DNA of 64,000 bases from a virus (lineage: Duplodnaviria > Caudoviricetes): IMG/VR virus record IMGVR_UViG_3300010340_000989, positions 32,001 through 96,000 of that record; one strand, given 5' to 3'. The notes beneath the pieces are model-generated. The model did no database searches. It had not been told where the DNA came from and saw nothing but the letters and a program-made list of their open reading frames with translations. Below, piece after piece: positions 14,406 through 52,244 of this stretch. Position 1 is the stretch's first letter; each line of letters opens with the position of its first letter. Both the position numbers and the translations under genes were made by a program.

Positions 14406-15161
14406 ATGATATTAGGGTTCAATAAATTTAGAATAAAAAAATATTGTTTTCTTTTAGGAATAAAAGACTATAAAATTAATAAAGATAATTCAATTGATGT
14501 GAATGAATCTGTTAATTTGACTGATTCTTGGACTAGAAATTCTGCTAATTATTCTTGGGACGATAAAAAAGGAAAAAGATGGTTTAGAGATAAATTACCT
14601 ATTAAATTTGGAAAAGTTAATGGAAACTTTAATATAAGTGGGTGTTTTTTAAAAACATTGGAAGGTTGCCCTACACATGTAGAAGGAAATTTTGATTGTT
14701 TAAGTAATAAAAATTTAGAATCTCTTGAAGGATCGCCTAAATTTGTAGGTGGTAAGTATAATGCAACTTCATGTAATATTAAATCTTTGAAAGGTATATC
14801 AAATAATATATCAGAATTATACTCTAGAAATAATCCTCATCAACATCTACATGATATTTCATTAAATTTAGGGTTTAATGATAATTTAATGGATCTTATT
14901 GATTTTCCAGATTTTCTAAAAGGTAATTTTTCATTCAGGGATTGTCCAGTTGAGGAAATTTTAAATTTATTTAATATAAGATCTGTATATAAGGGATCTG
15001 GAATTTTTGATACTGAGAATGAGAAAATAATTCATTTAATTAATGAATTTGATGTAATACAAGGTAAAAATATTATTGAGGATAGACTAATTGAAATTTA
15101 CCATATATTAGATTTGGAAATACCAAGCTCTTTTAATTTTAAAAACTATAATTTAACATAA
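14406..15161 (+). CDS. LRR-like (LxSLEGCP repeat) protein
   Basis: LKTLEGCP, LESLEGSP repeats; C-domain INEFDVIQG shared with 28583, 29220, 34879. Confidence 0.75.
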   Translation: MILGFNKFRIKKYCFLLGIKDYKINKDNSIDVNESVNLTDSWTRNSANYSWDDKKGKRWFRDKLPIKFGKVNGNFNISGCFLKTLEGCPTHVEGNFDCLSNKNLESLEGSPKFVGGKYNATSCNIKSLKGISNNISELYSRNNPHQHLHDISLNLGFNDNLMDLIDFPDFLKGNFSFRDCPVEEILNLFNIRSVYKGSGIFDTENEKIIHLINEFDVIQGKNIIEDRLIEIYHILDLEIPSSFNFKNYNLT

Positions 15162-15931
15162 TGTATTCAAAAATATACGACTTTTGTAAAGTTAAAAATA
15201 CCGGTTTAGCTTATAAAAATGGACTCGAACAAACTCCTCGTGTTCAATGGATAGTTAAATTATTAGAATCTAATAATATTGAATATATTATTGATGAATG
15301 GGGTTCAGTTAGTAATAAATTTTATAATATAATTTTACCAGGTAGTTCTGGTAAATTTGTCACAGCTCATCATGATATAGTTAATCCAGCATCTGATAAT
15401 GCTAATGATAATTCAGCTTCTGTTATTAATGCAATAATGACTAAAATAAATTTACCATCTACAACTGTAATTCTTTTAGATGGTGAAGAGATTGGTGGTA
15501 AAGGGTCACAAAGAGCATCTGAAAAAATAAATGCTGGTGAATATGGTAATTGTGATTGGATTTTAAATTTTGAATTAACTGGAAAAGGTGGTCATCATTT
15601 TTTTATTGGAAATAATAAAAATATTTTAAATGATCATATTAAATCTTTATTTAATTGTCCGGTAGTTCATACACCATTTAATGATTCAGTTATATTCAAT
15701 AATAATGGAATTATATCAACGGTAATAAATCCATTACCACCATTGAGTAAAGAAGAAAGTGAAATTAGGTCTTTTTTAAGAAGATCTCCAGAAGTTTTAT
15801 CATATGATGGAACACCACTTGATTTTTCTATTCTTTATAATTGCCATTCAATGAAAGACAGCTTAGATACAATTGATCCAAAAGACATGCAAGACTTTGT
15901 GGAAAAAGTTGCAATGAAAATATTATCTTAA
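15161..15931 (+). CDS. Peptidase M28 family protein
   Basis: TAHHD, ANDNSASV, DGEEIG, LNFELTG, C-terminal His: M28 Zn-ligand motifs. Confidence 0.8.
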   Translation: MYSKIYDFCKVKNTGLAYKNGLEQTPRVQWIVKLLESNNIEYIIDEWGSVSNKFYNIILPGSSGKFVTAHHDIVNPASDNANDNSASVINAIMTKINLPSTTVILLDGEEIGGKGSQRASEKINAGEYGNCDWILNFELTGKGGHHFFIGNNKNILNDHIKSLFNCPVVHTPFNDSVIFNNNGIISTVINPLPPLSKEESEIRSFLRRSPEVLSYDGTPLDFSILYNCHSMKDSLDTIDPKDMQDFVEKVAMKILS

Positions 15932-15934
15932 CTA

Positions 15935-16042
15935 ATGAAGAATGTAAAGTTATATGAAGAATTTATATCATTTCAATCACTTGTTAATCTTGTAAAAAAG
16001 ATTGGTGGTATTTTCTATATAAAAAATTGGACTAAATATTAA
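15935..16042 (+). CDS. Small protein with capsid-targeting-like N-terminus (not in ORF track)
   Basis: MKNVKLYEEFISFQSLVNLVKKIGGIFYIKNWTKY; stop overlaps next ATG. Confidence 0.5.
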   Translation: MKNVKLYEEFISFQSLVNLVKKIGGIFYIKNWTKY

Positions 16043-16443
16043 TGAGACATTTAAAAAAATTTGAAAACACACAAGAAGAAAATATCTTCAAAAGAGATGA
16101 AATAGGTGATATTATAAATGAATTCGCCGATTCTTTTGATATTGAAGAAGTTGATGATATAATCATATATCCAGATATAGATTCGTATGGTTCGGATCCC
16201 TCTACATTTTTAGGTGAATTATCTGAAATAGATCATGGTATAACCACATCTTTTAAAATTTATATTCCATATGATTATGATTATTCTGATTTTAATGACT
16301 TATGCAATACATATATCAAAACATTTAATACTCTTAAATCATTAAATGGTAAAATGGAAATGTTTAATGTTGAAATTTTAGAAGATTATTTTTTTATAGA
16401 TTTTGATTCAACTTCAATAGTAATAGGTTTACAAAAAATATAA
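16042..16443 (+). CDS. Putative internal head protein
   Basis: N-terminus MRHLKKFE; acidic. Confidence 0.6.
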   Translation: MRHLKKFENTQEENIFKRDEIGDIINEFADSFDIEEVDDIIIYPDIDSYGSDPSTFLGELSEIDHGITTSFKIYIPYDYDYSDFNDLCNTYIKTFNTLKSLNGKMEMFNVEILEDYFFIDFDSTSIVIGLQKI

Positions 16444-16448
16444 GTATA

Positions 16449-16868
16449 ATGAAACATCTTAGAAGATTTAATGAATCATATATTAATACAGATGAAATAA
16501 AAAATTATATCTATGATATTTTTTCTGATTTAGATGATTATAATATAAAAGTTCAATCTTGTAAAGAAGATATTGGTGTTCTTTATTTCAATGTAGTTAA
16601 AAAACATCTTGAGTTTCTATATAATAATTATGATATTACTGAAATTATAGAAATATCTATTAATAAAAAATATTATGAAGGATCATTAAATTATAAATAT
16701 TTTAAAGAGATGAGTGGATCTTTAATTAGTTATATGTTATCAGAAGACTTTGATTATATAATAGAACCTGTTTATCCACAATCAGTTGGAATTGGATATA
16801 AACTCAATAATATAAGTGAAATTGAAAATATGGAACTTGTGAGTCTAAATTTTAGATTTTTTCAATAA
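16449..16868 (+). CDS. Putative internal head protein (IxDI..L.D / SYxxSE.F family)
   Basis: MKHLRRFNES; SLISYMLSEDF. Confidence 0.6.
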   Translation: MKHLRRFNESYINTDEIKNYIYDIFSDLDDYNIKVQSCKEDIGVLYFNVVKKHLEFLYNNYDITEIIEISINKKYYEGSLNYKYFKEMSGSLISYMLSEDFDYIIEPVYPQSVGIGYKLNNISEIENMELVSLNFRFFQ

Positions 16869-16897
16869 TATAGAATATGAATTCAAAAGGTTATTAA

Positions 16898-17065: not shown

Positions 17066-17117
17066 AGGGAGAAAATTTATTTTTATATATAATTATATAA
17101 AAATAAATTAAAAAGTT

Positions 17118-17853
17118 ATGAATAAGAGGGGAACTTGGACATACCAAAGATGTAAAGAATTGGCATCTCTATTTAATAGAAGAATGAACTTTTATAAGGA
17201 ATATAAAGTTGCTTATACAACCGCTAGTAAAAATGGATGGTTAGAAGAAATATGTAAACATATGGATTATAATCAAACTCCACCAGGAACCTGGATATGA
17301 TAAATGTAAATTAGAAGCAATTAAATATAACAGTAAATCTGAATTTCAAAAGAAAAATTACAATGTGTATCGAAGAGCTTATGATAATGGATGGATAGAT
17401 GATATATGTGTACACATGAAATCTATTGGTAATTTATATAAAAGAATGGTCTATGTTTATATTTTTGAGGATAAATTTTTTTATGTTGGTTTAACCTGTA
17501 ATAAAGAAAGAAGAAAGGAAGAGCATTTAAAAACAAATACATCAGTTTACAATCATATCAATAAGACCAAATCAAAATTTAAATATATTGATTTAACTGA
17601 TTATATAGACGTTAATGAATCTGTTATTAAAGAGAAATATTTTTTAGATAAATTTAAAAAGGATGGGTTGATTCCTCTAAATAAAAATAAAACAGGTGGA
17701 TTAGGAGGAGGTGTAAAAAAGTGGAATTATGACACATGTAAAGAAAAATCTTTATTATGTAAAGGTAGATATGAGTTTTCAAAAAAATTTGGAAGAGCTT
17801 ATAAGGAATCAAAGCTTAATGGGTGGATTGATGAATTTTTTCCAAAAAATTAA
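17118..17853 (+). pseudogene. Frameshifted GIY-YIG homing endonuclease
   Basis: VYVYIFEDKFFYVGLT...RRKEEH core; repeat GTW(T)YDKCK broken by a frameshift at ~17295 (ACC TGG A TAT GAT). Confidence 0.75.
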
Positions 17854-18695
17854 TAATTAAATATTATAATTTCTTTGGTTTCTTTTTTACTACCACTTTT
17901 ATTTATCTTTTCATAGTTGAAATTTAGCTCTTTATAATTAAATCCATCTGAAATAAGTTTATCTAGAATCCAAGTTTTTTTACCACCATGTTCTATTACA
18001 CCAGATATCATAAAAGATGAATTTAATTTGTTAATTTTATGACAAAAATCATATAAATTAATATCATCATTTTTATAATAAAAATTATTATATCCAGCTT
18101 CAGATATTTGTTTATCACCAATATTTCCATCTGTGTTTTTAATATATCCGTAAGGTGGATCCATATAGTAAAATGTATCTCTAGTAATAATCATTTCATT
18201 AAAATTTTTTGATGAAAAAGTTATTTTATCAGAGAATTTTCTGATATGTTGAATAAATTTTGAGACTTTTGTCTCGGTGTTGGAATTCCAAGATCTTTTA
18301 CCCCAAGTTTGATTAAATTTACCCCTTTGATTGAATCTAATCAAGTTAGAATTACAACTTAACATCAAAGCCCATAATTTAGAAGGAGTAGGGTTCAAAT
18401 TGTAACTATCTCTTAACTCAATAAAGTCTTTTTGGCTTATTTTTAAGTTTTGACAAATAGATTTAGTTTCAGTTATTATATCATCAGAATGTAATAATGC
18501 TTGATGAATGCCAATTAAATCTTTAATAACATCATTAGCAATTAATTTATCATATTTATCTACAACATTTGTATAAACAGAACCACCACCACAAAAAAGA
18601 TCAACAAAATAAGGTTTTGTATAATCAAATTCGGGTAATAGTTGTTCAAGTAGTTTAAACTTCGAACCAGTGTAGTTAAATGGTGTCTCTATCAT
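17850..18695 (-). CDS. dam: Dam-like (D12 class) DNA adenine methyltransferase
   Basis: PFNYTGSK, DLFCGGGSV, DPPY. Confidence 0.9.
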   Translation of the reverse strand: MIETPFNYTGSKFKLLEQLLPEFDYTKPYFVDLFCGGGSVYTNVVDKYDKLIANDVIKDLIGIHQALLHSDDIITETKSICQNLKISQKDFIELRDSYNLNPTPSKLWALMLSCNSNLIRFNQRGKFNQTWGKRSWNSNTETKVSKFIQHIRKFSDKITFSSKNFNEMIITRDTFYYMDPPYGYIKNTDGNIGDKQISEAGYNNFYYKNDDINLYDFCHKINKLNSSFMISGVIEHGGKKTWILDKLISDGFNYKELNFNYEKINKSGSKKETKEIIIFNY

Positions 18696-18903: not shown

Positions 18904-19202
18904 GGTTGATAGATAGTATAATATGCTGTTAATTCATCACCTGGATTAATATCTATAAGTGTTTTTAATCTTAATTGTTTTATTTCATTATCAATAGATT
19001 CAATTATTTCACAGTTTGGAGTAATTGAATGATTAAAAAAACCACCAAGTGGTAATCTTATATAGTTATCTGGAAATCTTTCATCGTAGATGTGTGTCAT
19101 TCCAAGGTCTGTTTCAGATGGAATAAAATCAGTTGAAAATAATCCTAATCCTTCAATTTTTGAATCACTAATTGTTAAATTAGTTGGTAGTGGTCGATAC
19201 AT
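18900..19202 (-). CDS. SET-domain protein lysine methyltransferase
   Basis: SKIEGLGLF, FFNHSITPNC, DINPGDELTAYY. Confidence 0.9.
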   Translation of the reverse strand: MYRPLPTNLTISDSKIEGLGLFSTDFIPSETDLGMTHIYDERFPDNYIRLPLGGFFNHSITPNCEIIESIDNEIKQLRLKTLIDINPGDELTAYYTIYQP

Positions 19203-20067
19203 TATAGTTCATTATTAATAGTTCAGTTCCTTTAGTAGTTTCTTGGCCTTTCTTAGCTCCTGATATCTTATTAAATTCCTTTTCCTCCCAATGAAATTGG
19301 TCTCTTGGAAACCATTCCTCTAACTCTGGAAAATAATAGTATGATAATGACCACTTTGCTTCTAATTTTTTAATACAATCAGCTAATCTCTTATGTGTTT
19401 CTAATCCAAATTCATGATTACTATAATACTTTTCACAGTTATAGTATGGAGGATCTAAATAGAAATATGTTTCTGGACTATCATATTTTAACATTAAATT
19501 CTCAAAATCTATACTCTCAACATTTGTAATTTTATCTAGGTGATTTAATATATTCTTACCATGATTAGAACCATTCATTTTTTTTCTAAATGATTCAAAC
19601 TTACAGTTATATTTACCCTTCAAATCTATAAAAGAACTAGTTTCTGGCTTAGATCCAGAAAAAACTTGTGATAATACATATGAATATTTAACTGCATTTT
19701 GATAATCTGGATTATCCATATCTAATTTTGGTTGGTTTTTAAAAATATCTTTTTGATATTCATCAAACCATTTTTTAAATTTCGGATCGGTTGGGGATCC
19801 ATCTTTTCTTCTCTGCTGACATTCTTGACTTTCCAAGAATGTATAAAACTCTTTATATTTTCTAGCACAAGCAAATATATTAGCATTTAGAACATTAAAA
19901 TCATTATAGATTACTTTCTCTAAATCAGGATATTTATCTAAATCCATAGTTAAATAAACATTAAACATACCACTAAATGGTTCAGAAAATACTTTTATAT
20001 CTTTTGGGATAAAATCTACAATCCACTTACCCATTGAGCCACCTTTGGCACCCATGTAACTTATCAT
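19180..20067 (-). CDS. Second Dam-like (D12 class) DNA adenine methyltransferase
   Basis: ISYMGAK, EPFSGMFNV, IYNDFN, FYLDPPY. Confidence 0.88.
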   Translation of the reverse strand: MISYMGAKGGSMGKWIVDFIPKDIKVFSEPFSGMFNVYLTMDLDKYPDLEKVIYNDFNVLNANIFACARKYKEFYTFLESQECQQRRKDGSPTDPKFKKWFDEYQKDIFKNQPKLDMDNPDYQNAVKYSYVLSQVFSGSKPETSSFIDLKGKYNCKFESFRKKMNGSNHGKNILNHLDKITNVESIDFENLMLKYDSPETYFYLDPPYYNCEKYYSNHEFGLETHKRLADCIKKLEAKWSLSYYYFPELEEWFPRDQFHWEEKEFNKISGAKKGQETTKGTELLIMNYNVSTTTN

Positions 20068-21143: not shown

Positions 21144-21767
21144 TTAGTCTTCTTTCTTCTTCTTTTTGAATCGACTTCTATATCCTTTGAAATTAGGATT
21201 CTTTTTAGGTTCTTTTAATCTAAATGTGACAACTTTTTTACCATTTATTGTTGGCATTCCTGTTTCATCTTTGTCAATCTTCTTGATAACAGTTTTCTTA
21301 TTTTTAAATCGTCCCATATATACAGTATCTCCAACTTCAACATCGATAGTTATTTTCTCAGATAAAGGTTTTTTCTCATACCAAAGTCCTAGTTCCAATA
21401 CTTGATTTGTAGTCAATGCTTTTTTTACTTCATCTAATAAATTAACACCGTCCCAATTAAAATTATCATAATCATCTCCATATTCACCAGGAACCTCTGA
21501 TAAGAAATATCCCTCATCTTCTAAAAATGAATTTAAATGATCAAGTAAAGGTAATAATAATCTAAGTTCTTTATGTGTGAAGTCTATAAAGGTAATATCA
21601 ACATATGAATTCTTAGTTTTGGATTTTTTAGAATCCCACAAATAGTTTATAATATTTAATTTCCCTGTTCCTAAATCAAAAAAATCTGATAATATTAATT
21701 TACATTCTTGTATAATATATTCTTCATTAGATTCTTTAATAAATTGAACAAATTTAGATATTTTCAT
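21144..21767 (-). CDS. Putative internal head protein with C-terminal SH3/KOW-like basic domain
   Basis: MKISKFVQFIKES; HLNSFLEDEGY; VEVGDTVYMGRFKNKK; TAATATATA at 21772-21780. Confidence 0.6.
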   Translation of the reverse strand: MKISKFVQFIKESNEEYIIQECKLILSDFFDLGTGKLNIINYLWDSKKSKTKNSYVDITFIDFTHKELRLLLPLLDHLNSFLEDEGYFLSEVPGEYGDDYDNFNWDGVNLLDEVKKALTTNQVLELGLWYEKKPLSEKITIDVEVGDTVYMGRFKNKKTVIKKIDKDETGMPTINGKKVVTFRLKEPKKNPNFKGYRSRFKKKKKED

Positions 21768-24517: not shown

Positions 24518-24769
24518 ATGAATCTAATGAAATTTGAAAATTTTAAAAGCAGAGGCGAAATAAGAAAAGAAGCTGATCAACTTCTTGGTAATCTACATGC
24601 AGCCTTACTTGGTAATATTGCTTATGATAATAGAGAAAATATTAAAAAATCAGTAGAAAATATTAAAAATTCTAATATAAATTGGGATAAAGATGTTGTA
24701 AAATCTGTTAGAGAAAAGTATAATGAATTAATGAAAGCATTAGAATGGCATATGAATAATTGGAATTAA
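24518..24769 (+). CDS. Putative internal head protein
   Basis: MNLMKFENF; late motif upstream. Confidence 0.6.
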   Translation: MNLMKFENFKSRGEIRKEADQLLGNLHAALLGNIAYDNRENIKKSVENIKNSNINWDKDVVKSVREKYNELMKALEWHMNNWN

Positions 24770-26319: not shown

Positions 26320-27018
26320 ATGAAATATTTAAAAAGATTCAAACAAATTTGTAAGAAAAATCAATTTATTAAAGAATCTAATCAGAAATTCGATGGTGAT
26401 GATAGATGGGTGGAATATGATCCTGCAGATAGTGGAATATCAGCTAAACGAATATGGAGATACCCTATATCTAGTAGATTCAATTGTTTAGTAAGAATGA
26501 CGGGTCAGAATGGATTTTATGATTTTGTTTTTTATTTCGAAGATATAGAATTAGATCGAAGATATTTTATGGATTATCTATATAAGGAACCTATTTCATA
26601 TAGAGGTTATAGAAAATTAAATTCTAATAATGCGATAGAAATATGTAAAGATCAATTGGATTTTTATAAACAAATAGAGCTTTTCCCAACAGAAAATGAG
26701 ATAAAAGAGTCACTTTATGTTTTTAAAGATGAGGATATTTACTTAAATGAAGATGGTGAAATAAAATATGGATATAGATACGAAAAATCATCTGATCCTG
26801 ATAACTCTGATTTAGTAGAGTGGCATTATAGAAAATTCAATGCAGGATTTATATGTGCTTTCATTATGGAAAAATATGAAAACAAATTTCCAGATAATAT
26901 TTCATCGCTAATAAATGAATTTAAATTTAATATTGAGAATATTACTAACAATGAATATGAGATAGAATATTATATTGATACTAGAGGATTGGTAATAATA
27001 TTAGACCCATCATATTGA
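26320..27018 (+). CDS. Putative internal head protein, paralog of 29833..30483
   Basis: MKYLKRF...FIKES; shares PTExEIKE and DTRGL with 29833; TAATATATA at 26303-26311. Confidence 0.65.
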   Translation: MKYLKRFKQICKKNQFIKESNQKFDGDDRWVEYDPADSGISAKRIWRYPISSRFNCLVRMTGQNGFYDFVFYFEDIELDRRYFMDYLYKEPISYRGYRKLNSNNAIEICKDQLDFYKQIELFPTENEIKESLYVFKDEDIYLNEDGEIKYGYRYEKSSDPDNSDLVEWHYRKFNAGFICAFIMEKYENKFPDNISSLINEFKFNIENITNNEYEIEYYIDTRGLVIILDPSY

Positions 27019-27619: not shown

Positions 27620-27904
27620 ATGCATATAAAGAAATTTAACAATTTAGAACCACTAAATGAAGCAACTACTGAAAGTTATAAATACAAAAATGAACCTAAT
27701 CCTATTATTGATAAGTCTAAAAATTGGATAATTAATAACCCAAATCTTGCTAGAACAAAACCAGAAGATGCTGATTTTTTTAAAATTGAAGTTTTCGGAT
27801 ATAATCATAAAAAAGTTGCTGATGATCTTTATGAATCTCTTAAAGAGAGTGGATTTTTAGATAAATATCCTTTATTTTCAATAAAAATATCACCTATGCA
27901 ATGA
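27620..27904 (+). CDS. Putative internal head protein
   Basis: MHIKKFNNLEPLNE. Confidence 0.6.
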   Translation: MHIKKFNNLEPLNEATTESYKYKNEPNPIIDKSKNWIINNPNLARTKPEDADFFKIEVFGYNHKKVADDLYESLKESGFLDKYPLFSIKISPMQ

Positions 27905-28248
27905 TTTATATTAAAACATTTTTAGAAAGTAAAGGCAAGAGTATTGGAGAAGATAGAGATATTAAAGATATTATTCTTAATTTAAAGAATATATCAAAAG
28001 AAAGAAAAGAAGAAGCTCTAACTTTACTAAAACCATATACAAAGGCAGGAAATTCTAAGATAACAGAATTAAATCTTTCTAAAATTTTGATAGATAAGTT
28101 AGAAAAAGGTGGATATCCATCGGGATTTAGTATGGGTATTGATAAAAATGGATATTTTATTCATACACATAGAGCTCGTAGTAAAAGTTATGAAAGTCCA
28201 GACAAAATACCAGTAAAGGATATAAAATTTATAGACTCAACAGGATGA
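27901..28248 (+). CDS. Putative internal head protein
   Basis: MIYIKTFLES; HTHRARSKSY. Confidence 0.6.
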   Translation: MIYIKTFLESKGKSIGEDRDIKDIILNLKNISKERKEEALTLLKPYTKAGNSKITELNLSKILIDKLEKGGYPSGFSMGIDKNGYFIHTHRARSKSYESPDKIPVKDIKFIDSTG

Positions 28249-28586
28249 CAAAATTAGAATTTATAAATAATCAACATGATTATATACAAAAAACAATTCA
28301 AAATATTGAAGATGTTATTATTAATCGACAATCATCAACTTTCGAAACTAAAGAATCTTTAAATAATTTATTAGTTTATTTTAAAATTCACTTTTATACA
28401 GAAGAATTATTGATGAGTGGTGATCCAATTAATACTAAACATAAAATAGATCATAATGTTGTAATTTCATTTATCGAAGATGCTCTTAAAAAAGAACATA
28501 TAGAAGTTGAATCTATTCTTTTTTTAAAGAAATGGGGTGAAGAACATTATACAAATTTCGATAAACTTTTATTAGAAAATATATGA
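28245..28586 (+). CDS. Bacteriohemerythrin-like protein
   Basis: QH...HFYTEELLM...HKIDH...WGEEHYTNFD di-iron ligand pattern. Confidence 0.8.
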   Translation: MTKLEFINNQHDYIQKTIQNIEDVIINRQSSTFETKESLNNLLVYFKIHFYTEELLMSGDPINTKHKIDHNVVISFIEDALKKEHIEVESILFLKKWGEEHYTNFDKLLLENI

Positions 28587-29233
28587 AATCATATAAACAA
28601 TTTATTAATGAATCCAAAAACTCTATTGAATCTATTTGTGATAAATATGGTATAAAAAACTATACAATTAATTCTGATGGAAGTATTGATGTTGATGGTG
28701 ATGTTAATTTAAATTATAATAATTTAACTAAAATACCATTAAGGTTTAGAAATGTTGGTGGTGATTTTTATTGTCAATTTAATGAATTAACTACATTAGA
28801 GTATTGTCCTCAAAGTGTTGAAGGTAATTTTTATTGTTCTTATAACAAATTAACTTCATTACAAGGTTGTCCTAGAAAAGTTGTAGGTAATTTTTCTTGT
28901 TCTGATAATCAAATAGTTTCATTAGAAGGAATTTCTGAAAGTAGTATAGGTATTAATTTTTATTGTAATTCTAATAAAATTACTGATTTCAAAGGAGTAT
29001 CTGAATTTTTTGAAGGTGATCTTATATGTCAAGGTAATCCAATATATGAAATACATTGTCTATTTAACCATACACGCCAAAGTTCTATTCATTCAAGTTA
29101 CATTAAATGGATTAATGAATATGATGTTATACAGGGGAATAAAATAATTATGGATCGATTGGAAGAAGTTTATCATCAATTTAATATTGAAATACCAAAA
29201 AATATAACATTTAGGAATTATGAAATCATATAA
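28583..29233 (+). CDS. LRR-like protein with capsid-targeting-like N-terminus
   Basis: MKSYKQFINES; 22-aa LTSLxGCPxxVxGNFxC repeats. Confidence 0.75.
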   Translation: MKSYKQFINESKNSIESICDKYGIKNYTINSDGSIDVDGDVNLNYNNLTKIPLRFRNVGGDFYCQFNELTTLEYCPQSVEGNFYCSYNKLTSLQGCPRKVVGNFSCSDNQIVSLEGISESSIGINFYCNSNKITDFKGVSEFFEGDLICQGNPIYEIHCLFNHTRQSSIHSSYIKWINEYDVIQGNKIIMDRLEEVYHQFNIEIPKNITFRNYEII

Positions 29234-29846
29234 ACAATTTATAAAAGAGTCCAAAAACTCTATTGAATCTATTTGTAAAGAATATGGTATAACTAATTAT
29301 ACTATCAATGAAGATGGATCTATTGATGTTGATGGTGATGTAGATTTAAATAATTGTTTCTTAGAAAAGATTCCATTAAAATTTCGAAATGTTACTGGTC
29401 ATTTTAATTGTAGTCATAATAATTTAATATCATTAGAGGGTTGTCCAATAAGTGTTGGTTATAATTTTTTTTGTAAGTATAGTAAATTAACATCATTAGA
29501 AGGTTGTCCTAAAAATGTTGGTGGTAATTTTTATTGTGGTTATAATCAATTAACTTCATTAGAAGGTTGTCCCGAAAGTAGTGATATATTACATTGTGTT
29601 TTTAATAAAATAACAGATTTCAAAGGAATATCCGAATTTTTTGAAGGTGATCTTATGTGTCATGAAAATCCTATATTTGAAATATATGGTTTATTTAGAC
29701 AAAATTTTAATTGCATTAAATGGATTAATGAATTCGATGTCATTCGAGGAAATAAAGTGGTTATGGATTTATTAGAAGAAGTGTTTCACCAATTAAATTT
29801 GGAAATACCAGAAAATATAGAATTCAAGAATTATGAAATCATATAA
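29220..29846 (+). CDS. LRR-like protein with capsid-targeting-like N-terminus, tandem paralog
   Basis: MKSYKQFIKES; LTSLEGCP repeats. Confidence 0.75.
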   Translation: MKSYKQFIKESKNSIESICKEYGITNYTINEDGSIDVDGDVDLNNCFLEKIPLKFRNVTGHFNCSHNNLISLEGCPISVGYNFFCKYSKLTSLEGCPKNVGGNFYCGYNQLTSLEGCPESSDILHCVFNKITDFKGISEFFEGDLMCHENPIFEIYGLFRQNFNCIKWINEFDVIRGNKVVMDLLEEVFHQLNLEIPENIEFKNYEII

Positions 29847-30483
29847 ACAATTTATTAATGAATCGATAATTAATATTTATTTCCCATTATCTTGGAAAGA
29901 ATTAGATCCTAAAAAAGAAGGTATATCTGCTGATCAAATGTATAAAAGACCTTTATCAAAAAAAGGATTTTATTGTATGGTTTTAGTAAGGTCTGATGGT
30001 AAAACTCACACATTCTATATTGAAGATGATATGGGAACATACACATTTATGGATTATGTAGGTGAAAAATCTATAGCATTAGATATAAATAAGATTATAA
30101 CTCTACAAGAAGCTTATGAATTATGTGAAAGGCAATTAGATTATTATAATAAAATGGAAAAATTACCAACCGAAGAGGAAATAAAAGAATTCTTTTATAT
30201 TTTTTCAGATGAAAATATTGACACCACTAATTATGATATTAAATATGGTTATGAAAGTGGTAGAATATCAGATGAAAATAATTATGAAATGGTTTTGTAT
30301 CACAGACCAAGATTTAATAGTAATTTTATATGTGTTTTATCATTTAATGATGATGAATTCGATTTTACAAATATCGAAAGTATGATTCATGAATTTAAAG
30401 TTAATATTGAAGATATTAAAAATACTGATTATAAGATACAATATTTTAAAGATACAAGAGGTCTTTTAATTGTTATTAGTTGA
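29833..30483 (+). CDS. Putative internal head protein, paralog of 26320..27018
   Basis: MKSYKQFINES. Confidence 0.65.
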   Translation: MKSYKQFINESIINIYFPLSWKELDPKKEGISADQMYKRPLSKKGFYCMVLVRSDGKTHTFYIEDDMGTYTFMDYVGEKSIALDINKIITLQEAYELCERQLDYYNKMEKLPTEEEIKEFFYIFSDENIDTTNYDIKYGYESGRISDENNYEMVLYHRPRFNSNFICVLSFNDDEFDFTNIESMIHEFKVNIEDIKNTDYKIQYFKDTRGLLIVIS

Positions 30484-31760: not shown

Positions 31761-32045
31761 TTATTCAAATCCACATAAACCATGTAAATCTTCTAAAGAA
31801 TCACAAGGTCCGTTACTAACTTGATATGATGGATCTAATAAATAATATTTTTTATTATCAATTCTATATGCAATATACTCAATATATTTTTCATATCCAT
31901 CGGATAATGAAATATTTTCATCATCAACTAAATCAAATAGATTATCACCAGTATCAATTACATCAATTATGAGCCATTTATCATCTATAATGTCTCCGAT
32001 TTTTGATTCTAAAATAATTTGATTGAATGATTTAATATATTTCAT
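31761..32045 (-). CDS. Putative internal head protein
   Basis: MKYIKSFNQIILES; TAATATATA at 32065-32073 (minus). Confidence 0.6.
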   Translation of the reverse strand: MKYIKSFNQIILESKIGDIIDDKWLIIDVIDTGDNLFDLVDDENISLSDGYEKYIEYIAYRIDNKKYYLLDPSYQVSNGPCDSLEDLHGLCGFE

Positions 32046-38707: not shown

Positions 38708-39547
38708 ATGTTTTTGAAAAAATTTGAAAATTTTGATAACAATTTTTGTGTATATATTTTTTTAAACCCATCTAAACCAGGTGAGTATAAATATGACGAA
38801 TATAAATTTGATTTTGAACCAATATACGTTGGAAAAGGTAGGAGTAATAGGCCAAAAAATCATATTTATAAATTTAAAAATGGTAGAACATATTTTTATA
38901 AAAAATTGATCAATTTGGTTGGCTCTGGATATGATCCTTTATGGATAATTATTAGAAATAATTTAACCGAAAAAGAGGCATTCGATGAAGAAATTAGATT
39001 AATTAAATTAATAGGTAGAAAAAATACAGGAGGTAGTTTATCAAATCTAACAGATGGTGGTGAAGGTCAAACAGGATATAAACATAGAGAAGAGAGTAAA
39101 TTAAAAACATCAAATAGTCTAAAATCCAATACTGAGTGGGTTAATAAAATGAAATCAAAAGAACATAGAGATAAACTAAGCAAATCTTTAATGGGACATG
39201 AGGGATATGGAAAAGGAATCGCGAGAAGTCAAGATGTGAAAGATAAAATAAGACTAAGTGTATCTGGTGATAAGAATCACTTTTTTGGAAAAACACACAC
39301 CGATGAATTAAAAAATAAACTTTCAATAAAAAATACCGGAAAAAATAATCCTAATTCTAAATTATATAGAATAGAACATAATGGTGAGATATTAACATTT
39401 GAAGGTAGATTGGAACTAAAAGAATATTTAAATAAATTTAATATTGATAATAATTTAAAGGGCCCTAATAGGGTTAGCTTTGATAATTTAATCAATCGTG
39501 GATACTCAAAAGATTTTAAACTATTATCTATTGATAAATTAAATTAA
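38708..39547 (+). CDS. GIY-YIG homing endonuclease with NUMOD3; capsid-targeting-like N-terminus
   Basis: MFLKKFENF; VYIF...IYVGKG...R; LSNLTDGGEG. Confidence 0.85.
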   Translation: MFLKKFENFDNNFCVYIFLNPSKPGEYKYDEYKFDFEPIYVGKGRSNRPKNHIYKFKNGRTYFYKKLINLVGSGYDPLWIIIRNNLTEKEAFDEEIRLIKLIGRKNTGGSLSNLTDGGEGQTGYKHREESKLKTSNSLKSNTEWVNKMKSKEHRDKLSKSLMGHEGYGKGIARSQDVKDKIRLSVSGDKNHFFGKTHTDELKNKLSIKNTGKNNPNSKLYRIEHNGEILTFEGRLELKEYLNKFNIDNNLKGPNRVSFDNLINRGYSKDFKLLSIDKLN

Positions 39548-42297: not shown

Positions 42298-43413
42298 TTA
42301 TTTCTTAGTCGGCTTGTTGATATCCTTGATTACTCGTAGAACATCTTCAAATCCTAACAAGAAAGATTTAATCTTTGGTTTAGAAATATCAAGATTATTA
42401 TCAAGTATAAATAACAAGTAAGCTGTTAATTCATCCTGACCAACTCTTTTAAGGAATTTAGTCACGTTATTAAGTTGTTTATCACTAAACTTACCAAGAT
42501 CCATCTCTTTAAGAGATTGAATAAGTTCGGAATTCTTATCACGATTATATTTATTCAAATCAGCCTCTACACGATCATAATCATTGATTACATCATTGAT
42601 ATTGACATTCAACATATCTTCACAATACTGAAGGAATTTCATCGCTGAGTTTCCAACATATCCTGCTGCTACTTCTTTAAGAATTGGAAGGAACTCACGA
42701 GGACCAGATTCCATACCGAAGTTAGAAACAATGAAGTCACTCAAGAACGTCCAAGAACGTGGAGTAGCGTAAGCCTGTACTCCTTCAGCAGTTTTATACA
42801 AATTCTCTGGGTGAGCTTGTAAATAAGATACAACCATTCGGTGAACGTTATCTTTAGCGAATCCATCAACCCACTCTTGGAAAGATAATGTGTGTTTTAC
42901 GTGAATCAAACGGTTATTCAACGCTGAGTCAAACTCTTCTACGTCTGTACCATCTTCATCACCAAGGTTACCAGAAGACATCATCAATACAGTATCATTG
43001 AACTTAAAGTTAACACCAATCTGACGTTCAAGTAGAATTTGAAGAGCCGCGTTACGAACAGATTGAGAAGCTCGGTTCAACTCTTCAAAGTGGATAATTG
43101 TAGGTTGTTTATTCGCCTCAAGTGCCCAACGAGGTACAACGAAGTCAAGACATTTAACACCATCAACATCTGACACATTAGGGTATAATCCTACATCGGT
43201 TTCATCAACCATCGATAAACGAATATCCATATATCGGAAATTCATTTTCTTTGCGATAGAACGAGCAATCGCAGATTTAGCTACACCAGGTTTAGCTGTG
43301 ATGTAGAGTACACCAGACTTACCCCACATCATACGAAGATAAGACTGTTCACGTTTTGTTAGACTTGGAATCAGATCCAAGAATGATTGGGGCATCATTT
43401 TACTATTATCCAT
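42298..43413 (-). CDS. MoxR-like AAA+ ATPase
   Basis: Walker A AKPGVAKS, Walker B IIHFEELNRA, DSALNNR, TPRSW. Confidence 0.88.
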   Translation of the reverse strand: MDNSKMMPQSFLDLIPSLTKREQSYLRMMWGKSGVLYITAKPGVAKSAIARSIAKKMNFRYMDIRLSMVDETDVGLYPNVSDVDGVKCLDFVVPRWALEANKQPTIIHFEELNRASQSVRNAALQILLERQIGVNFKFNDTVLMMSSGNLGDEDGTDVEEFDSALNNRLIHVKHTLSFQEWVDGFAKDNVHRMVVSYLQAHPENLYKTAEGVQAYATPRSWTFLSDFIVSNFGMESGPREFLPILKEVAAGYVGNSAMKFLQYCEDMLNVNINDVINDYDRVEADLNKYNRDKNSELIQSLKEMDLGKFSDKQLNNVTKFLKRVGQDELTAYLLFILDNNLDISKPKIKSFLLGFEDVLRVIKDINKPTKK

Positions 43414-46623: not shown

Positions 46624-46872
46624 TTATTTTTCTGTCATTTCTATAAGTTCTAAAATTCTATCCTTATCTAATTCACACTGTTTAGCAGTTTTTATAATAA
46701 TTTCTTTACCACTTTCTGTTGATAAAAGTTTTTCAAAATTATCTTTATCTGAAATTAATTTAGATAAAGTCCAAAAAGCACCTAATTTATTTCTAAGCTT
46801 ATCCTGTACAGACTCTGTGGAAAAGTCATTATCGTGTTCGTTTTCTATCGATTCTGTAAATTTCTTAATCAT
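46624..46872 (-). CDS. Putative internal head protein
   Basis: MIKKFTES. Confidence 0.6.
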   Translation of the reverse strand: MIKKFTESIENEHDNDFSTESVQDKLRNKLGAFWTLSKLISDKDNFEKLLSTESGKEIIIKTAKQCELDKDRILELIEMTEK

Positions 46873-48062
46873 AACATTTGTTTAAATTTTTCTATTTCCA
46901 ATCTCTTGATTTCATCACCTAAAGCTTTATTTTTTTTAAAACCTTTAGATATCAAATCTTCGGAAGATACACTAGGAATATAGTCAATAAATCTAATAAA
47001 AATCTTATCATGAACTCCACAAGTATCCAACCAATCAATAATTTGATCAACTTCACAATGACATCTTACTTTTTTCTTATATAAATCAAGAGCATTCTCT
47101 GGTGTTAATTTTAACAAATCTAATAGAAATACAACTTTAGGAGCAGTATCATACTTATCCGCAATTTTATATGATTGTACCATTTTAGTCTTAAGATTTT
47201 TAGTATCTTCAAACTTAAATAAGTTAGCAATATATGATGTTAATTTATGAGCCTCTTCAATATTAGTATTGATTTTAGAACCTGGAAATACTTGTTCCCA
47301 CATATCAAATTCATTAAAAAATTCAAGATATTGTTTGTAGGATTTAGCTTGTTTAAAAGCTTTCAACATTTCTTCCCATATTCTTTCTTGAGAAACATCA
47401 TCTTTCGGACCAATTCCTTTAAGTCGATTATCTTTTTTAATAGCATCAGCTGTTTTATCTTCAATTTTACCACCTGTTCTAGCAGCAAATCTAAAAACTC
47501 TTAAAATTCTAAGTCTATCTTCAATAAATCTTTGACTAGCGTCACCAACAGCTCTAATTATACCATTTTTGATATCATCAACACCACCTACTAAATCAAT
47601 AATTTGTTTCTTTTTAATATCATAGAACAAAGCATTAATAGTTAAGTCTCTTCTATTACAATCATCTTCTATTGTAACATTATCTCCCATTTCCACTTTC
47701 TGATCATCACCTTTTGTATCTCTTCCACCTGAGATATCCTTTCTATATGACGCAATCTCATATCCAGTTGGTTCATCTTTGGTAAAAACCCTCAATACTC
47801 CAAAGTTTTTACCTTGTTCATCAGATACATTAAACCCCTTCAATATCTCTTTAGATTCGTTTGGTAAGGCATTTGTCACTAAATCATAATCTTTAGGAGA
47901 AATTCCTTTCACAAAATCTCTAACAGCACCACCTACTAAGAAAATATCTTTACCAGCCTTTATATAAGCATTAGATATTTCTATAATATCATTTGGTAAA
48001 GGAATATCAGTAGATATTCTATTTTTAAGGCTTTCACAGAAGAGTTTGTATCTAGTTATCAT
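46869..48062 (-). CDS. cca: CCA-adding / poly(A) polymerase family nucleotidyltransferase
   Basis: VGGAVRD, DYD, RRDLTINAL, EDRLRILR, SQERI; likely start MITRYKLFCES. Confidence 0.88.
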   Translation of the reverse strand: MITRYKLFCESLKNRISTDIPLPNDIIEISNAYIKAGKDIFLVGGAVRDFVKGISPKDYDLVTNALPNESKEILKGFNVSDEQGKNFGVLRVFTKDEPTGYEIASYRKDISGGRDTKGDDQKVEMGDNVTIEDDCNRRDLTINALFYDIKKKQIIDLVGGVDDIKNGIIRAVGDASQRFIEDRLRILRVFRFAARTGGKIEDKTADAIKKDNRLKGIGPKDDVSQERIWEEMLKAFKQAKSYKQYLEFFNEFDMWEQVFPGSKINTNIEEAHKLTSYIANLFKFEDTKNLKTKMVQSYKIADKYDTAPKVVFLLDLLKLTPENALDLYKKKVRCHCEVDQIIDWLDTCGVHDKIFIRFIDYIPSVSSEDLISKGFKKNKALGDEIKRLEIEKFKQML

Positions 48063-48081: not shown

Positions 48082-48867
48082 TTAACGAATCAATATATGA
48101 GATGCTGGAATTTTTCTCAAATCAGTAACTATACGATCCTGACTAATTCCGTAATCACTGTATATTTCTAATCCTTGAATAATTTCTTTTTCAACTAACT
48201 CATATAGATTTGAATTATCAGTTGAAGACTTATTCAAATCTGAATTCTCATCAAAAATATCCATAAATATTTTCTTCAATTGCTGTCTAGTTTTCATACC
48301 TGAAATTTGAACCTCGGCTACCGAATCATCATAACTATCTAGTTGGATTTTTGAGAAACTGGTTTTACCATTGACCACGGTATAATCGACGCTAAACCAA
48401 AATCCCCAGAAAAATCCGTTATAAAAATCTAAATCTTCAAAATTATCTGAAATATTTTTGATATCATCTTCACTAGTCGGGATCAACCCAACAGAGAATC
48501 GTATTGAAATTGTCCTATTATCTTGTTCTTCATCATGCCAGAATTCCTGCAAATCTGTAAATTCTGGACATATTTCTAAGTAAAACTCAACATTTCCACC
48601 TCTATATGAGTCTTCAGAACCAGGTGAATAGAGATCAAATCTAAATGTTCCAAATTTAGAATATTTATCTACTTTTCTTTTCCATTTATCCATCGATTCT
48701 CTCATTTCCATATCACCAGCATGAGATTTTAATTTATCAGCTCTTTCGGCAGCATTAATACTTCTAGCTAATCTTGGATCATCTTTTACTATTTTTTGTA
48801 GTTTTCTAGAGGCTCTCATATATGTTGAAGAGTTGAGTTCTTCGTTAAATCTTTTTAAATGTTTCAT
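48082..48867 (-). CDS. Putative internal head protein
   Basis: MKHLKRFNEEL; TY..A...L...R...L shared with next gene. Confidence 0.65.
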   Translation of the reverse strand: MKHLKRFNEELNSSTYMRASRKLQKIVKDDPRLARSINAAERADKLKSHAGDMEMRESMDKWKRKVDKYSKFGTFRFDLYSPGSEDSYRGGNVEFYLEICPEFTDLQEFWHDEEQDNRTISIRFSVGLIPTSEDDIKNISDNFEDLDFYNGFFWGFWFSVDYTVVNGKTSFSKIQLDSYDDSVAEVQISGMKTRQQLKKIFMDIFDENSDLNKSSTDNSNLYELVEKEIIQGLEIYSDYGISQDRIVTDLRKIPASHILIR

Positions 48868-48882
48868 TTTAAATAATTTTTT

Positions 48883-49680
48883 TTAGTGGGAAATCCTTTT
48901 GAAGGCTTCTTTAGGATCTTCATTATATAATTTATTAGTATTAATATTTTTAAATTCATCTAATATCATCTCTACATCTGATATTTCAATTGTAGATATT
49001 ATATTAGGAAGAATTTCAAACATAGCTTCTGAATTAGTCATATATTTATCATCGTCTTCATTTTTATATCCAGTATAAACTTTTATTTCATTAGTTAATA
49101 CTTTTCTAAGAATATTTCTAAAATTATTAGCAGATTTTCTATCACTAAACATAGTGCCAAGCTCACCATAAGTAAAAATCGTTATCGGAGAAACTCTATC
49201 TATATTACCATTCTCATTTAGATTAAAATGTGTATGTAATTCCATTGGCCAAAACTTATAAGAACTAAGTTCGCATTCATCTTTAAATAAATCTATATAT
49301 TCTGGTTTAATTTTAGATAACTCTGATTCATTTATTTCAAACGAAATAGTAATAGATACTGGTAAAATATTAGTACTTTTATGATATTCAATATCATCTT
49401 TTAACAAATCCAGATTAAGTTCAATCTTGTTAAGTTTAGCTTTTATTGGAGTATCAGAAATAATGCCACTTGTTATTCCTTTTCTTGATGTTGCTGTTGC
49501 TGGGTAAGAAGTCATCCATTTAATCCAAATATTGAATTCACCAACATCACCAAGCTTACCTTTCTTAGCCCAGTCAATTAGTTTTTGTCCCCTTTCAAGA
49601 TGTCCTACCTTTTTAAGATTATCACCAGCATTTATATAAGTTTCTATATTAAGTTCTTCAAATTTTTTTAAGTGCCTCAT
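48883..49680 (-). CDS. Putative internal head protein, distant paralog of 48082
   Basis: MRHLKKFEEL. Confidence 0.65.
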   Translation of the reverse strand: MRHLKKFEELNIETYINAGDNLKKVGHLERGQKLIDWAKKGKLGDVGEFNIWIKWMTSYPATATSRKGITSGIISDTPIKAKLNKIELNLDLLKDDIEYHKSTNILPVSITISFEINESELSKIKPEYIDLFKDECELSSYKFWPMELHTHFNLNENGNIDRVSPITIFTYGELGTMFSDRKSANNFRNILRKVLTNEIKVYTGYKNEDDDKYMTNSEAMFEILPNIISTIEISDVEMILDEFKNINTNKLYNEDPKEAFKRISH

Positions 49681-49696
49681 TGTTTATAAAATTGAA

Positions 49697-49714
49697 TTTT
49701 AATATATATTAAAA
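49697..49714. promoter_or_regulatory. Palindromic bidirectional late-promoter motif
   Basis: TTTTAATATATATTAAAA perfect palindrome between divergent tagged genes. Confidence 0.65.
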
Positions 49715-49953
49715 TGAGATACTTGAAATTTTTTGAAGCATTTAAATATAAAAACTTTACTCTACAAGACATAATAGATTGTATTCAAAGTAAAGGATTT
49801 ATTTATGCAACTATTATTAATAATTTACCTGATAATGATCCAGATATGGCAATTAACCCAATGAGTGTAGATGATGACGGTTTAATTACGGTTGAAATTG
49901 ATGGAAAAGAATATGAAGTTGAATTAAAAAATGTTGAAAAAATAGAATTTTAA
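49714..49953 (+). CDS. Putative internal head protein
   Basis: MRYLKFFEAF. Confidence 0.6.
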   Translation: MRYLKFFEAFKYKNFTLQDIIDCIQSKGFIYATIINNLPDNDPDMAINPMSVDDDGLITVEIDGKEYEVELKNVEKIEF

Positions 49954-50429
49954 TGATTAAAAGTTGGGAATTGTTTTTAGAATCAAATAACAGGGATCAA
50001 GAAATACTTGATAATATTAGGGATATTCTTATATCTCTTAAAGTAGATCATTCTATTAGAGTTTTAATAAGAAGCTATGTAGAAGAGTTTGGTAAAGTTA
50101 TGGTTTCTTTTATAATAGAAGGAAAAATTGGAATAGAAGAAGTTCAAACTATATTACACTTGGATAGTTATTTAAAAAGCGAAGAGTTTGATCCTAAGGC
50201 AAAATCTAATAAGATAAATGAATTAGATGTTGTTGTTCAAAGAAAAAGTGGGAAACTTGATCAGTATTCTATTAGCAAATTGCTAACAATGCTAAACGGT
50301 GTAAATAAAGATGTTATTGACTTGACTAGAATTGAGTTTCAATACTATCTACCAGATTATCTTAGATATTATAATGATAAAAACGGAAATATTTTTAAAA
50401 TTGGAGATTTGATTATTTATTTACATTGA
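49953..50429 (+). CDS. Putative internal head protein (HLxSYLxSEEF family)
   Basis: MIKSWELFLES. Confidence 0.65.
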   Translation: MIKSWELFLESNNRDQEILDNIRDILISLKVDHSIRVLIRSYVEEFGKVMVSFIIEGKIGIEEVQTILHLDSYLKSEEFDPKAKSNKINELDVVVQRKSGKLDQYSISKLLTMLNGVNKDVIDLTRIEFQYYLPDYLRYYNDKNGNIFKIGDLIIYLH

Positions 50430-50469
50430 GAACTATATTAAAAAATAGCAAGCAAACAATAACTGAATT

Positions 50470-50994
50470 ATGATTAAGGACTGGAAATTATTTTTAGAAT
50501 CAAATAACAGAGATCAAGAAATACTTGATAATATTAGGGATATTTTGTTGTCCTTAAATGATAGTTGTGACCTTATAAGAGTCTATATACCATCTTTTAT
50601 AGAAGAATTTGGCAGAGTTAAGGTTCATTTTATAATAGAAGGTAAAATAGGAATAGAAGAAATTCAAGTAATAAAACATTTAAATTCATATTTAGAAAGT
50701 GAAGAATTTAAATGTTCAATACCTAGAAGAGGAACAGATAATAGATTTAACCAGGCAGACTGGTTTAAAGAATTGAATGTTATTGTTCAAAGAAGAGAAG
50801 GTGGTGTATATAAATATTCTCTTAATGAAATAATAAGATTATTAAATATGGAAAATTCCATATTTAATAAAAAACCAGTATATAATTTAGTAAGAATTGA
50901 TTTTGCGTACTATGTACCAGATTATCTTAATGATGGAAATATTTTCCAAATTGGACAAGGAAAAGATTTAATAAGAAATAATATATATGGTTAA
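50470..50994 (+). CDS. Putative internal head protein, recent tandem paralog of 49953
   Basis: MIKDWKLFLES; near-identical 5' DNA. Confidence 0.65.
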   Translation: MIKDWKLFLESNNRDQEILDNIRDILLSLNDSCDLIRVYIPSFIEEFGRVKVHFIIEGKIGIEEIQVIKHLNSYLESEEFKCSIPRRGTDNRFNQADWFKELNVIVQRREGGVYKYSLNEIIRLLNMENSIFNKKPVYNLVRIDFAYYVPDYLNDGNIFQIGQGKDLIRNNIYG

Positions 50995-51475
50995 GAACTG
51001 GAAGTTATTTTTAGAAGCATTCGATCCATTCGAAGGAGATCCATTTAGAGAAGAAATTCTAAATAATGTTAATGATATATTATCTGGATTAAAAGATAAT
51101 GGATTTTATATTGATATCGTCTATGGATTTTCTTTCACTATAAATAATAAACTCTTAATTAACATAAAAGGTAAGGAATTTCCGTTTAGACCGGATGGTA
51201 TTGAATCATTATTTATATCATCAGATGATTTTCAATCAATAATACACTTAAACAACTATTTAATAAGTGAGGAGTTTGAACCTATTTCAAATAATATACT
51301 TAAAGAATTAGATATTAAATTTAACACATTTAAATCGGACAATCTAAACTCTGAAATGAAGAGAATGTCTTATCCAATTAGTAGATTGGAATATTCTTTA
51401 AAGAAAAATGGTATGAAAATTAATTTCATATATTTTGAATACATCCTACCAAAATTTGCTAAATTATTCAGATAA
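50987..51475 (+). CDS. Putative internal head protein (same family)
   Basis: MVKNWKLFLEA; HLNNYLISEEF. Confidence 0.65.
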   Translation: MVKNWKLFLEAFDPFEGDPFREEILNNVNDILSGLKDNGFYIDIVYGFSFTINNKLLINIKGKEFPFRPDGIESLFISSDDFQSIIHLNNYLISEEFEPISNNILKELDIKFNTFKSDNLNSEMKRMSYPISRLEYSLKKNGMKINFIYFEYILPKFAKLFR

Positions 51476-51491
51476 AAATATATTCAATTAA

Positions 51492-52244
51492 ATGATAGAT
51501 AGATTTAAAAACTTTCTAAAAAGAAAAAATAAAAATGAATTCGACTCTAAATCCACAAAGGATATTATAAACGATATAGTAACACCCTTAGAGGATATTA
51601 ATGGTGTTACTATTAACATATCACAAGGTAATGTGATTCAAAGTGATTCAAAATTATTTTTAGTTAAATATAATTTTCACTTAACAAGTGATGTAGATTT
51701 GGAAGAATTTAAAAATGAAATATTAAATTGTAAATCACATATTGAATCAGAGGATCTAGTTATGTATTTATCAATTTCAACAAGGAAAAATGGGAAAAAT
51801 ATCAGTTATGCTGGAAGAATAAATATTTATACAAATGATAGTTTCAAAAATTACAGACTTCAATCATATAATTTTCAAAATATTATTAATTTCCTAAATT
51901 TCTTGAAAATAAGTAATGATATATTTAGTAATATTAAAAATAAATACTCTATCGAAAACCATATAAGTGGTCTCGATGATATGATATATGTTCAAATAAC
52001 TAAAGGAATTAGAGACGGTGTGGAAATTCCATATAATTTTATAGAAATTAAAGATAATGTGCTAACTTTTTTAGATATGATAAAAAAACATAATTTAATA
52101 TTTAGATTAGCTTTCGTATCCGAAAATAACACAGGTGGGTTTTCTTCTGAAGAACCATCATATGATGATATAAAGAATGGATTATATGATAAAAGACAAG
52201 TAAGTATATTAACAATATACGAACAAACCATTTTAACCTCATAG
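51492..52244 (+). CDS. Hypothetical protein related to the same family
   Basis: MIDRFKNFL; DIINDIVTPLED; SHIESEDL. Confidence 0.6.
   Translation: MIDRFKNFLKRKNKNEFDSKSTKDIINDIVTPLEDINGVTINISQGNVIQSDSKLFLVKYNFHLTSDVDLEEFKNEILNCKSHIESEDLVMYLSISTRKNGKNISYAGRINIYTNDSFKNYRLQSYNFQNIINFLNFLKISNDIFSNIKNKYSIENHISGLDDMIYVQITKGIRDGVEIPYNFIEIKDNVLTFLDMIKKHNLIFRLAFVSENNTGGFSSEEPSYDDIKNGLYDKRQVSILTIYEQTILTS

Follow-up and report, generated by a model that had tools for sequence, protein, structure and literature searches.

In bacteriophage T4, a capsid targeting sequence is carried by the internal proteins IPI-III and by Alt, and is removed by the gp21 protease (Mullaney and Black 1996, as presented in the reviews PMC9026906 and PMC3012670). 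In IPIII this sequence is MKTYQEFIAE (10.1101/2021.01.19.427310); residues 4 and 7 act mainly in targeting and residues 8 and 10 in processing, which is blocked by Asp at position 10 (PMC9026906). Cassette-like behaviour has been described for the T4 internal-protein loci (PMC3012670, PMC9026906). Here we analyse a leader of this kind at the start of many open reading frames (ORFs) in a 64,000-nucleotide stretch of phage DNA (the window), which corresponds to bases 32001-96000 of a 164,996-base IMG/VR contig. As in T4, the leader extends over about 10 residues after the Met, with positions 4 and 7 hydrophobic or aromatic, and ends in hydrophobic-x-Glu; it is portable between unrelated proteins and lies in recombining gene arrays. 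In the clade, the protease appears to be of gp21 type and the capsid protein of gp23 type, and the late promoter resembles T4 TATAAATA. Compared with T4, where a handful of proteins are concerned, the leader is found on 13-17% of ORFs (about 40 in 165 kb and, in a relative, 124 in 642 kb), the P1' residue is Ser or Asn instead of Ala, and the protease of the clade is fused to a repeat scaffold; the system described here is known from sequence alone.

Two other groups of systems bear comparison. The phiKZ-like giant phages (phiKZ, 201phi2-1, SPN3US) have large capsids with many internal proteins, whose N-terminal propeptides are cut after Glu by a gp21-related protease (PMC5694885, PMC10052503). 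Most of these propeptides have 80-160 residues; they share no 10-mer, their cut motif is S/A/G-x-E, and about 8-19 proteins are processed. In contrast, the leader studied here measures 9-14 residues with a hydrophobic or aromatic residue at P3, which is not the phiKZ type, and the clade is not phiKZ-like. In encapsulin cargo peptides and in P22 scaffold-tag loading, a short terminal peptide also loads unrelated proteins into an HK97-fold shell, but these tags are C-terminal, uncleaved and serve one or few clients. A literature search, limited in coverage, found no paper that ties the capsid targeting sequence to huge phages or megaphages.

We consider it probable that the leader is a T4-type head-loading signal, trimmed by a protease and used on a much larger scale in a megaphage clade. 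Because it closely resembles the T4 head-loading signal, the proteins that carry it are probably packed into the virus particle. Late in infection, many unrelated proteins would be made with a short amphipathic N-terminal helix. Through a hydrophobic residue (position 4) and an aromatic one (position 7), this helix would dock the protein on the scaffolding core of the prohead during assembly. A prohead protease of the gp21 type, predicted to be fused to the scaffold in this clade, would then cut after the Glu, and the mature protein would be kept in the head with the DNA and would probably enter the next cell with it. Docking, cleavage and head retention are what we infer from the sequences; ejection would be a further step.

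Occurrence of the leader

The contig has a G+C content of 27% and an estimated completeness of 52% (CheckV). Its genes include those for collagen-like tail fibres, a split T4-style topoisomerase II, Hsp70, DnaJ and a Clp-like ATPase, along with many small ORFs; our set comprised 244 ORFs in the contig, about 100 of them in the window. The large subunit of the type II topoisomerase is 71-72% identical to those of two uncultured phage genomes, LR756502.1 (642 kb) and LR745206.1 (635 kb), and is more distant from those of another 636-kb genome, the Lak megaphages and cultured jumbo phages. Counts in a relative were made on the 972 ORFs of LR756502.

The leader consensus at ORF starts is M-[KR]-x-[LIY]-K-x-[FY]-(0-2 residues)-E-[SN]. 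It is present on 21 ORFs of the window (about one in five) and on about 40 of the contig. The pattern [LIVYWM][KRE]x[FY]x(0-2)E starts within the first 10 residues of 29 proteins, where its rate in the rest of these proteins would predict 4.0, and in LR756502 the leader is found on 124 ORFs where 15 would be expected. Counts that use no regular expression gave the same picture: Lys is present at position 2 of 29% of ORFs versus 9% in bulk, L at position 4 and F at position 7 are enriched (P = 6e-6 and 2e-6, respectively), as are, by position, L/I at 4, K at 5 and F/Y at 7, and this enrichment is limited to residues 2-11.

All 19 N-termini quoted in a preliminary description of this DNA are present at the starts given. 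Its estimate of about 20 genes falls short of the set found here. Of the interval that it delimited, 14406-52244, the two edge ORFs (14406-15161 and 51492-52244) have no convincing motif, and its peptide at 15935 exists, though on a very short ORF. The leader ORFs of the window and the doubtful members are as follows, with the basis of each assignment in brackets.

15935-16042 (+): ORF of 35 codons with leader MKNVKLYEEF, probably a leader-gene remnant (N-terminal sequence)
16042-16443 (+): leader protein of 133 residues, MRHLKKFEN, no known family (TATATAAAA element upstream)
16449-16868 (+): leader protein of 139 residues, MKHLRRFNES (N-terminal sequence)
21144-21767 (-): leader protein of 207 residues, long form ...FVQFIKES, no family match (TAATATATA immediately upstream)
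24518-24769 (+): leader protein of 83 residues, MNLMKFENF (TTTTAATATATAA upstream)
26320-27018 (+): leader protein of 232 residues with two successive leader-like segments, MKYLKRF ... QFIKES (sequence); the body shares 41% identity with that of 29833-30483
27620-27904 (+): weak leader, 94 residues, MHIKKFNNLE (N-terminal sequence)
27901-28248 (+): leader protein of 115 residues, MIYIKTFLES (N-terminal sequence)
28583-29233 (+): leader protein of 216 residues, MKSYKQFINES, identical to the T4 signal at positions 1, 2, 4, 7, 8 and 10, with a weakly leucine-rich-repeat-like body (sequence, family scans)
29220-29846 (+): paralog of the 28583 gene, 64% identity, leader MKSYKQFIKES (BLAST)
29833-30483 (+): leader protein of 216 residues (first 32 nucleotides those of 28583)
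31761-32045 (-): leader protein of 94 residues, MKYIKSFNQIILES (N-terminal sequence)
38708-39547 (+): GIY-YIG/NUMOD3 endonuclease, leader MFLKKFENF, nuclease domain from residue 15 (family profiles)
46624-46872 (-): leader protein of 82 residues, MIKKFTES (N-terminal sequence)
46869-48062 (-): CCA-adding tRNA nucleotidyltransferase, leader MITRYKLFCES (family profile, orthologs, AlphaFold model)
48082-48867 (-): leader protein of 261 residues, MKHLKRFNEE (N-terminal 40 or so residues recur in a relative, among others in the ORF directly upstream of its portal gene); a protein atlas search with this protein gave no match
48883-49680 (-): leader protein of 265 residues, MRHLKKFEEL, same N-terminal subfamily as 48082 (sequence comparison)
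49714-49953 (+): leader protein of 79 residues, MRYLKFFEAF, with a 58%-identical ortholog in LR756502 (sequence comparison)
49953-50429 (+): leader protein of 158 residues, MIKSWELFLES, first of a tandem paralog trio (BLAST)
50470-50994 (+): leader protein of 174 residues, MIKDWKLFLES, second of the trio (BLAST)
50987-51475 (+): leader protein of 162 residues, MVKNWKLFLEA, third of the trio (BLAST)
51492-52244 (+): doubtful member, MIDRFKNFLKRK..., no in-register Glu (sequence)
56121-57842 (-): doubtful member, MKFKHFETES (upstream element of the TAnnTTTG type, not TAATATATA); the LR756502 ortholog is without the first 137 residues

Conserved residues, late-type element and cut-site form

A database search with the CCA-adding enzyme returned 120 metagenome orthologs with 68-96% identity, some on contigs of more than 600 kb, of which 116 were aligned. 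Nearly all begin with the leader. Its Tyr is kept in 115 of the 116 and its Phe in all 116, and the residue that follows is I, V or L; two residues on, a Glu followed by N or S is present in nearly all, and the intervening positions are among the most variable of the enzyme. Throughout the set of leaders, L, I or Y occupies position 4, and F or Y position 7. At N-termini, [ILVMFY]-N-E-[NS] is enriched 9.5-fold in the contig and 15-fold in LR756502, and the looser [ILVMFY]xE[NS] 2.3- to 3.2-fold, whereas the control version with Asp is not enriched (0.7- to 1.3-fold). As far as sequences can tell, the constrained positions of the leader are those of T4 targeting and processing, with Glu preferred over Asp.

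An element of consensus tTTAATATATAa (the TAATATATA element) was found 6-27 nucleotides before many start codons. It stands ahead of the portal, protease-scaffold and capsid genes in LR756502; in the contig, the genes that follow it include those of the collagen-like tail fibres and the large paralogs at 5697 and 9670. In the contig, 32 of the 41 leader genes lie in TAATATATA-headed units compared with 36% of other genes; in LR756502, 112 of the 124 do, compared with 33% of others (P = 2e-35). Leader genes belong to the late, head-gene promoter class.

The short distance from this promoter-like element to the ATG, together with the fact that no Shine-Dalgarno sequences were seen upstream, could point to an RNA-level role of the leader, whose AT-rich, unstructured sequence would promote translation of late, nearly leaderless mRNAs in a host without Shine-Dalgarno pairing. 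What is fixed, however, is an aromatic residue and a Glu, and no base pattern. In the contig and LR756502, the synonymous codons for Ser, Leu and Lys are used in the leader in bulk proportions, and both families of Ser codons and four codons for Leu occur there; selection therefore bears on the peptide rather than on the RNA. On this codon usage we reject the RNA-level role, to which we give hardly any credence.

A separate C-terminal tag, R-[DE]-x-K-[IL]-x-x-[IL]-[LF], was observed at or near the end of 28 of the 244 contig proteins and 115 of the 972 in LR756502. Its genes lie at 13551-62928 of the window, mostly on the minus strand, and across the whole contig. Few of them are in TAATATATA units (2 of 28 in the contig, 10 of 115 in LR756502), and both tags are found on one protein in none of the 41 leader proteins of the contig and in 2 of the 124 in LR756502 (P = 2e-5).

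In LR756502 the portal gene is followed by a 699-residue ORF with a sub-threshold Peptidase_S77 match and by a gp23-like capsid gene. This head module was recovered from 80 IMG/VR contigs; among the PHROGs, its long ORF matched phrog_207, annotated as head maturation protease (E = 2e-30), and its portal matched phrog_213 (E = 2e-57). Pfam S77 gave 20-25 bits on the relatives' protease, below the cut-off of 27, compared with 57.6 bits for a Lak phage. An AlphaFold model of the protease domain (pLDDT, the model's own confidence score, 54) had T4 gp21 chains (5JBL) as its top three PDB matches, followed by herpesvirus proteases; the Foldseek match to 5JBL had an E value of 8e-6 and a TM score of 0.51-0.55. 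A profile of the whole protease-scaffold, compared with the PDB by sequence, did not find T4 gp21. From PHROGs, sub-threshold Pfam matches and a fold search on a low-confidence model, the relatives are predicted to encode a T4 gp21-type protease fused to a scaffold.

Residue conservation was examined in 77 copies of the module. The protease domain ends in an invariant N-E-S, with L or I before it in most copies; behind it lie about 12 repeats in tandem, each 14 residues long and headed by YSEY[ILV]AE[NH]. About 43 residues into the capsid protein stands an invariant ...EYAE[FY]H-x-INE-NAY, and the protease itself starts with M-K-P-x-L-I-x-E-N; in T4, gp21 undergoes C-terminal processing and likewise bears, close to its N-terminus, a sequence that looks like a cut site (PMC9026906). 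The form hydrophobic-x-E-[NS] is common to the protease boundary, the scaffold repeats, the capsid N-terminus and the protease start; it is also the form of the leader end and would be that of a common cut site. Leader genes are present inside the head module of relatives, one or two directly upstream of the portal gene, and an acidic leader gene follows a peptidase gene downstream of the capsid gene.

Related observations were made on peptidases and on Lak phages. A 452-residue peptidase (phrog_4191) is encoded two genes downstream of the capsid gene in relatives (L042:10709-12064), and the window has an M28-family peptidase gene at 15161-15931 (+), after ORF 14406-15161, which has a late-type element upstream. 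In Lak-A1 (26001-76000, read with TAG as Gln), several proteins have a different N-proximal motif, K-x-L-[IL]-E-[SN]-L-F-D-D-x-D-D, and INES and LNES stand just past the protease domain of the Lak protease-scaffold. The Lak motif may be a clade-specific version of the leader system.

Proteins that carry the leader

After removal of the first 16 residues, the 41 tagged proteins of the contig formed 35 BLAST clusters; homology past the leader was found in just four small groups (10 of the 41 proteins), and the set is not a single paralogous family. Most have no family match, and the exceptions are varied enzymes with five known folds. Outside the window, these are a T4 Rnl1-type RNA ligase (L003:14412-15674), a 2H phosphoesterase with weak Acb1 similarity (L005:5814-6353) and a Toprim/primase-like fragment. 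The leader precedes the profile-matched region, which starts at residue 38 in the CCA-adding enzyme, 15 in the GIY-YIG protein, 24 in Rnl1 and 45 in the 2H phosphoesterase. In the AlphaFold model of the CCA-adding enzyme, residues 2-13 form a detached low-confidence helix, followed by coil (14-23) and by a well-modelled domain from residue 24. All three enzymes of RNA-repair type in the contig, namely the CCA-adding enzyme, the Rnl1 ligase and the 2H phosphoesterase, bear the leader, which would fit pre-made delivery against tRNA-cutting or cyclic-nucleotide defences.

The 28583 and 29833 genes have an identical 32-nucleotide leader in front of unrelated bodies; judged from these sequences, this is cassette-like exchange at the leader. 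Together with the double leader of 26320, such turnover resembles that of the T4 internal-protein loci. The same recombination between neighbours could be read differently, the leader being the inherited or copied first helix of a huge, fast-diverging multigene family, spread by recombination between adjacent genes. The tandem arrays of leader genes do include true paralogs, and many small leader proteins have in common a second acidic helix about 10 residues past the leader. However, the leader stands on clearly different folds, as an extension outside the family profile, and only the four positions relevant in T4 are fixed in the 116 CCA-enzyme orthologs. Furthermore, only 16 of the 41 tagged proteins have a homolog in LR756502, although that genome has its own 124 leader ORFs. 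Inheritance of a common start is, in our view, decidedly improbable.

Several results weigh against the T4-type head-loading reading. First, as regards the head machinery, no match to the T4 protease and capsid families (protease, scaffold or capsid gene) was found in the contig; absence of the head module is expected, since the contig represents about half a genome. The link to the protease rests on relatives with 72% (topoisomerase) or only 40% (CCA-adding enzyme) identity. A strict matrix built from 607 scaffold repeat units failed to single out leaders (1 in the top 20, compared with 0.9 expected). The residue-class pattern [YF]xx[YF][ILVM]xE[NSH] is, outside the scaffold, almost solely N-terminal (7 versus 0.05 expected in the contig, 11 versus 0.4 in LR756502), but it covers long-form leaders only, for example those of 28583-30483 and of the CCA-adding enzymes. 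Identity of the leader with the scaffold repeat thus stands only at the level of residue classes and only for long forms; mimicry of the scaffold repeat is therefore proposed for a subset, and the common cut-site form is a firmer link.

Second, as regards the cargo, tagged proteins are acidic. Their median isoelectric point (pI) after the leader is 4.9 compared with 6.05 for other proteins (P = 1e-6), and 83% are below pI 6, so that they lack the basic character of IPI-III. They include RNA-repair enzymes and nucleases, whereas the T4 internal proteins are small and highly basic (10.1101/2021.01.19.427310). Acidic proteins seem ill suited to being packed with DNA, and it is hard to see what purpose a homing-type nuclease and a primase-like Toprim fragment would serve in a capsid. 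Internal hydrophobic-x-E-[SN] sites are not significantly depleted in tagged proteins (observed/expected 0.85-0.91, versus 1.13-1.30 in others), and one control pattern behaved alike. We know of no precedent for more than 100 clients per genome.

That the clients are acidic enzymes and not DNA-binding internal proteins also speaks for the main rival, namely that the leader is a portable address for another partner. This could be the DnaK/DnaJ/ClpB-like chaperones of the phage or an assembly or compartment formed late in the cytoplasm; the address could also serve regulated turnover. Hsp70s bind basic-hydrophobic segments like the start of the leader, and the contig encodes an Hsp70, a DnaJ and a 704-residue Clp/AAA+ protein. 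Outside the window, a DnaK-like Hsp70 was located at contig bases 109818-111683, a DnaJ-like protein at 114921-115955 and the Clp-type ATPase (phrog_4871) at 149615-151729, the first two being assigned from their N-terminal sequences alone. Another partner leaves unexplained the Glu-[SN] end, the preference for Glu over Asp and the match with T4 positions, as well as the site form common to the protease boundary, the scaffold repeats and the capsid N-terminus, and we consider it unlikely.

The comparison with T4 capsid targeting made in the preliminary description holds up well, given the constraint pattern, the portability of the leader, the late promoter class and the protease sites of relatives. 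The gp21-like protease that it proposed to look for in the genome was not found in the 165-kb contig and is predicted in relatives. Its interpretation as a whole is supported in part: the likeness to T4 stands, while the tagged proteins are acidic and the protease and scaffold were seen in relatives only.

Other genes of the window and meaning of the leader

No tRNA genes were found in the window. Two collagen-like tail-fibre genes are immediately followed by three tandem paralogs of about 1300 residues with a common N-terminus, encoded at 1782-13554 (+). Pfam and PHROG gave no match for the one scanned (1782-5660); the paralogs are probably structural, because a late-type element precedes two of them (5697 and 9670). 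Further genes are as follows.

17850-18695, 19180-20067, 30466-31224 and 33494-34654 (all -): DNA methyltransferase genes, four in a stretch of 17 kb (two of class D12, one N4/N6, one Eco57I-type N6)
42298-43413 (-): MoxR-like AAA+ ATPase gene, weak AAA_3/AAA_5 matches
54014-55591 (-): HNH endonuclease of 525 residues (phrog_1314); an overlapping frame of the locus has a short peptide, NNQVKV, as a direct repeat

A broader proposal, which we make tentatively, is that the leader is a general cargo address for more than 100 proteins (about one gene in 7), by which the capsid would deliver an enzyme kit with the DNA; the kit would include the CCA-adding enzyme, the Rnl1 ligase, the 2H phosphoesterase and nucleases. 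Long-form leaders would copy the scaffold repeat, so that clients would co-assemble with the scaffold and be freed by the same cut. With the C-terminal tag on genes outside the late class, two labels would cover much of the proteome.

If the T4-type reading is true, a signal known from a handful of T4 proteins would organise a large share of a megaphage proteome, and sequence alone would flag virion cargo among the unknown genes of 600-kb phages. The leader would be a natural, very short loading tag for large capsids. Uncultured phages would be testable cheaply, through metaproteome peptides that start just after the leader Glu. The reading would also suggest that RNA-repair and anti-signalling enzymes arrive in the cell pre-made, blunting host defences at entry.

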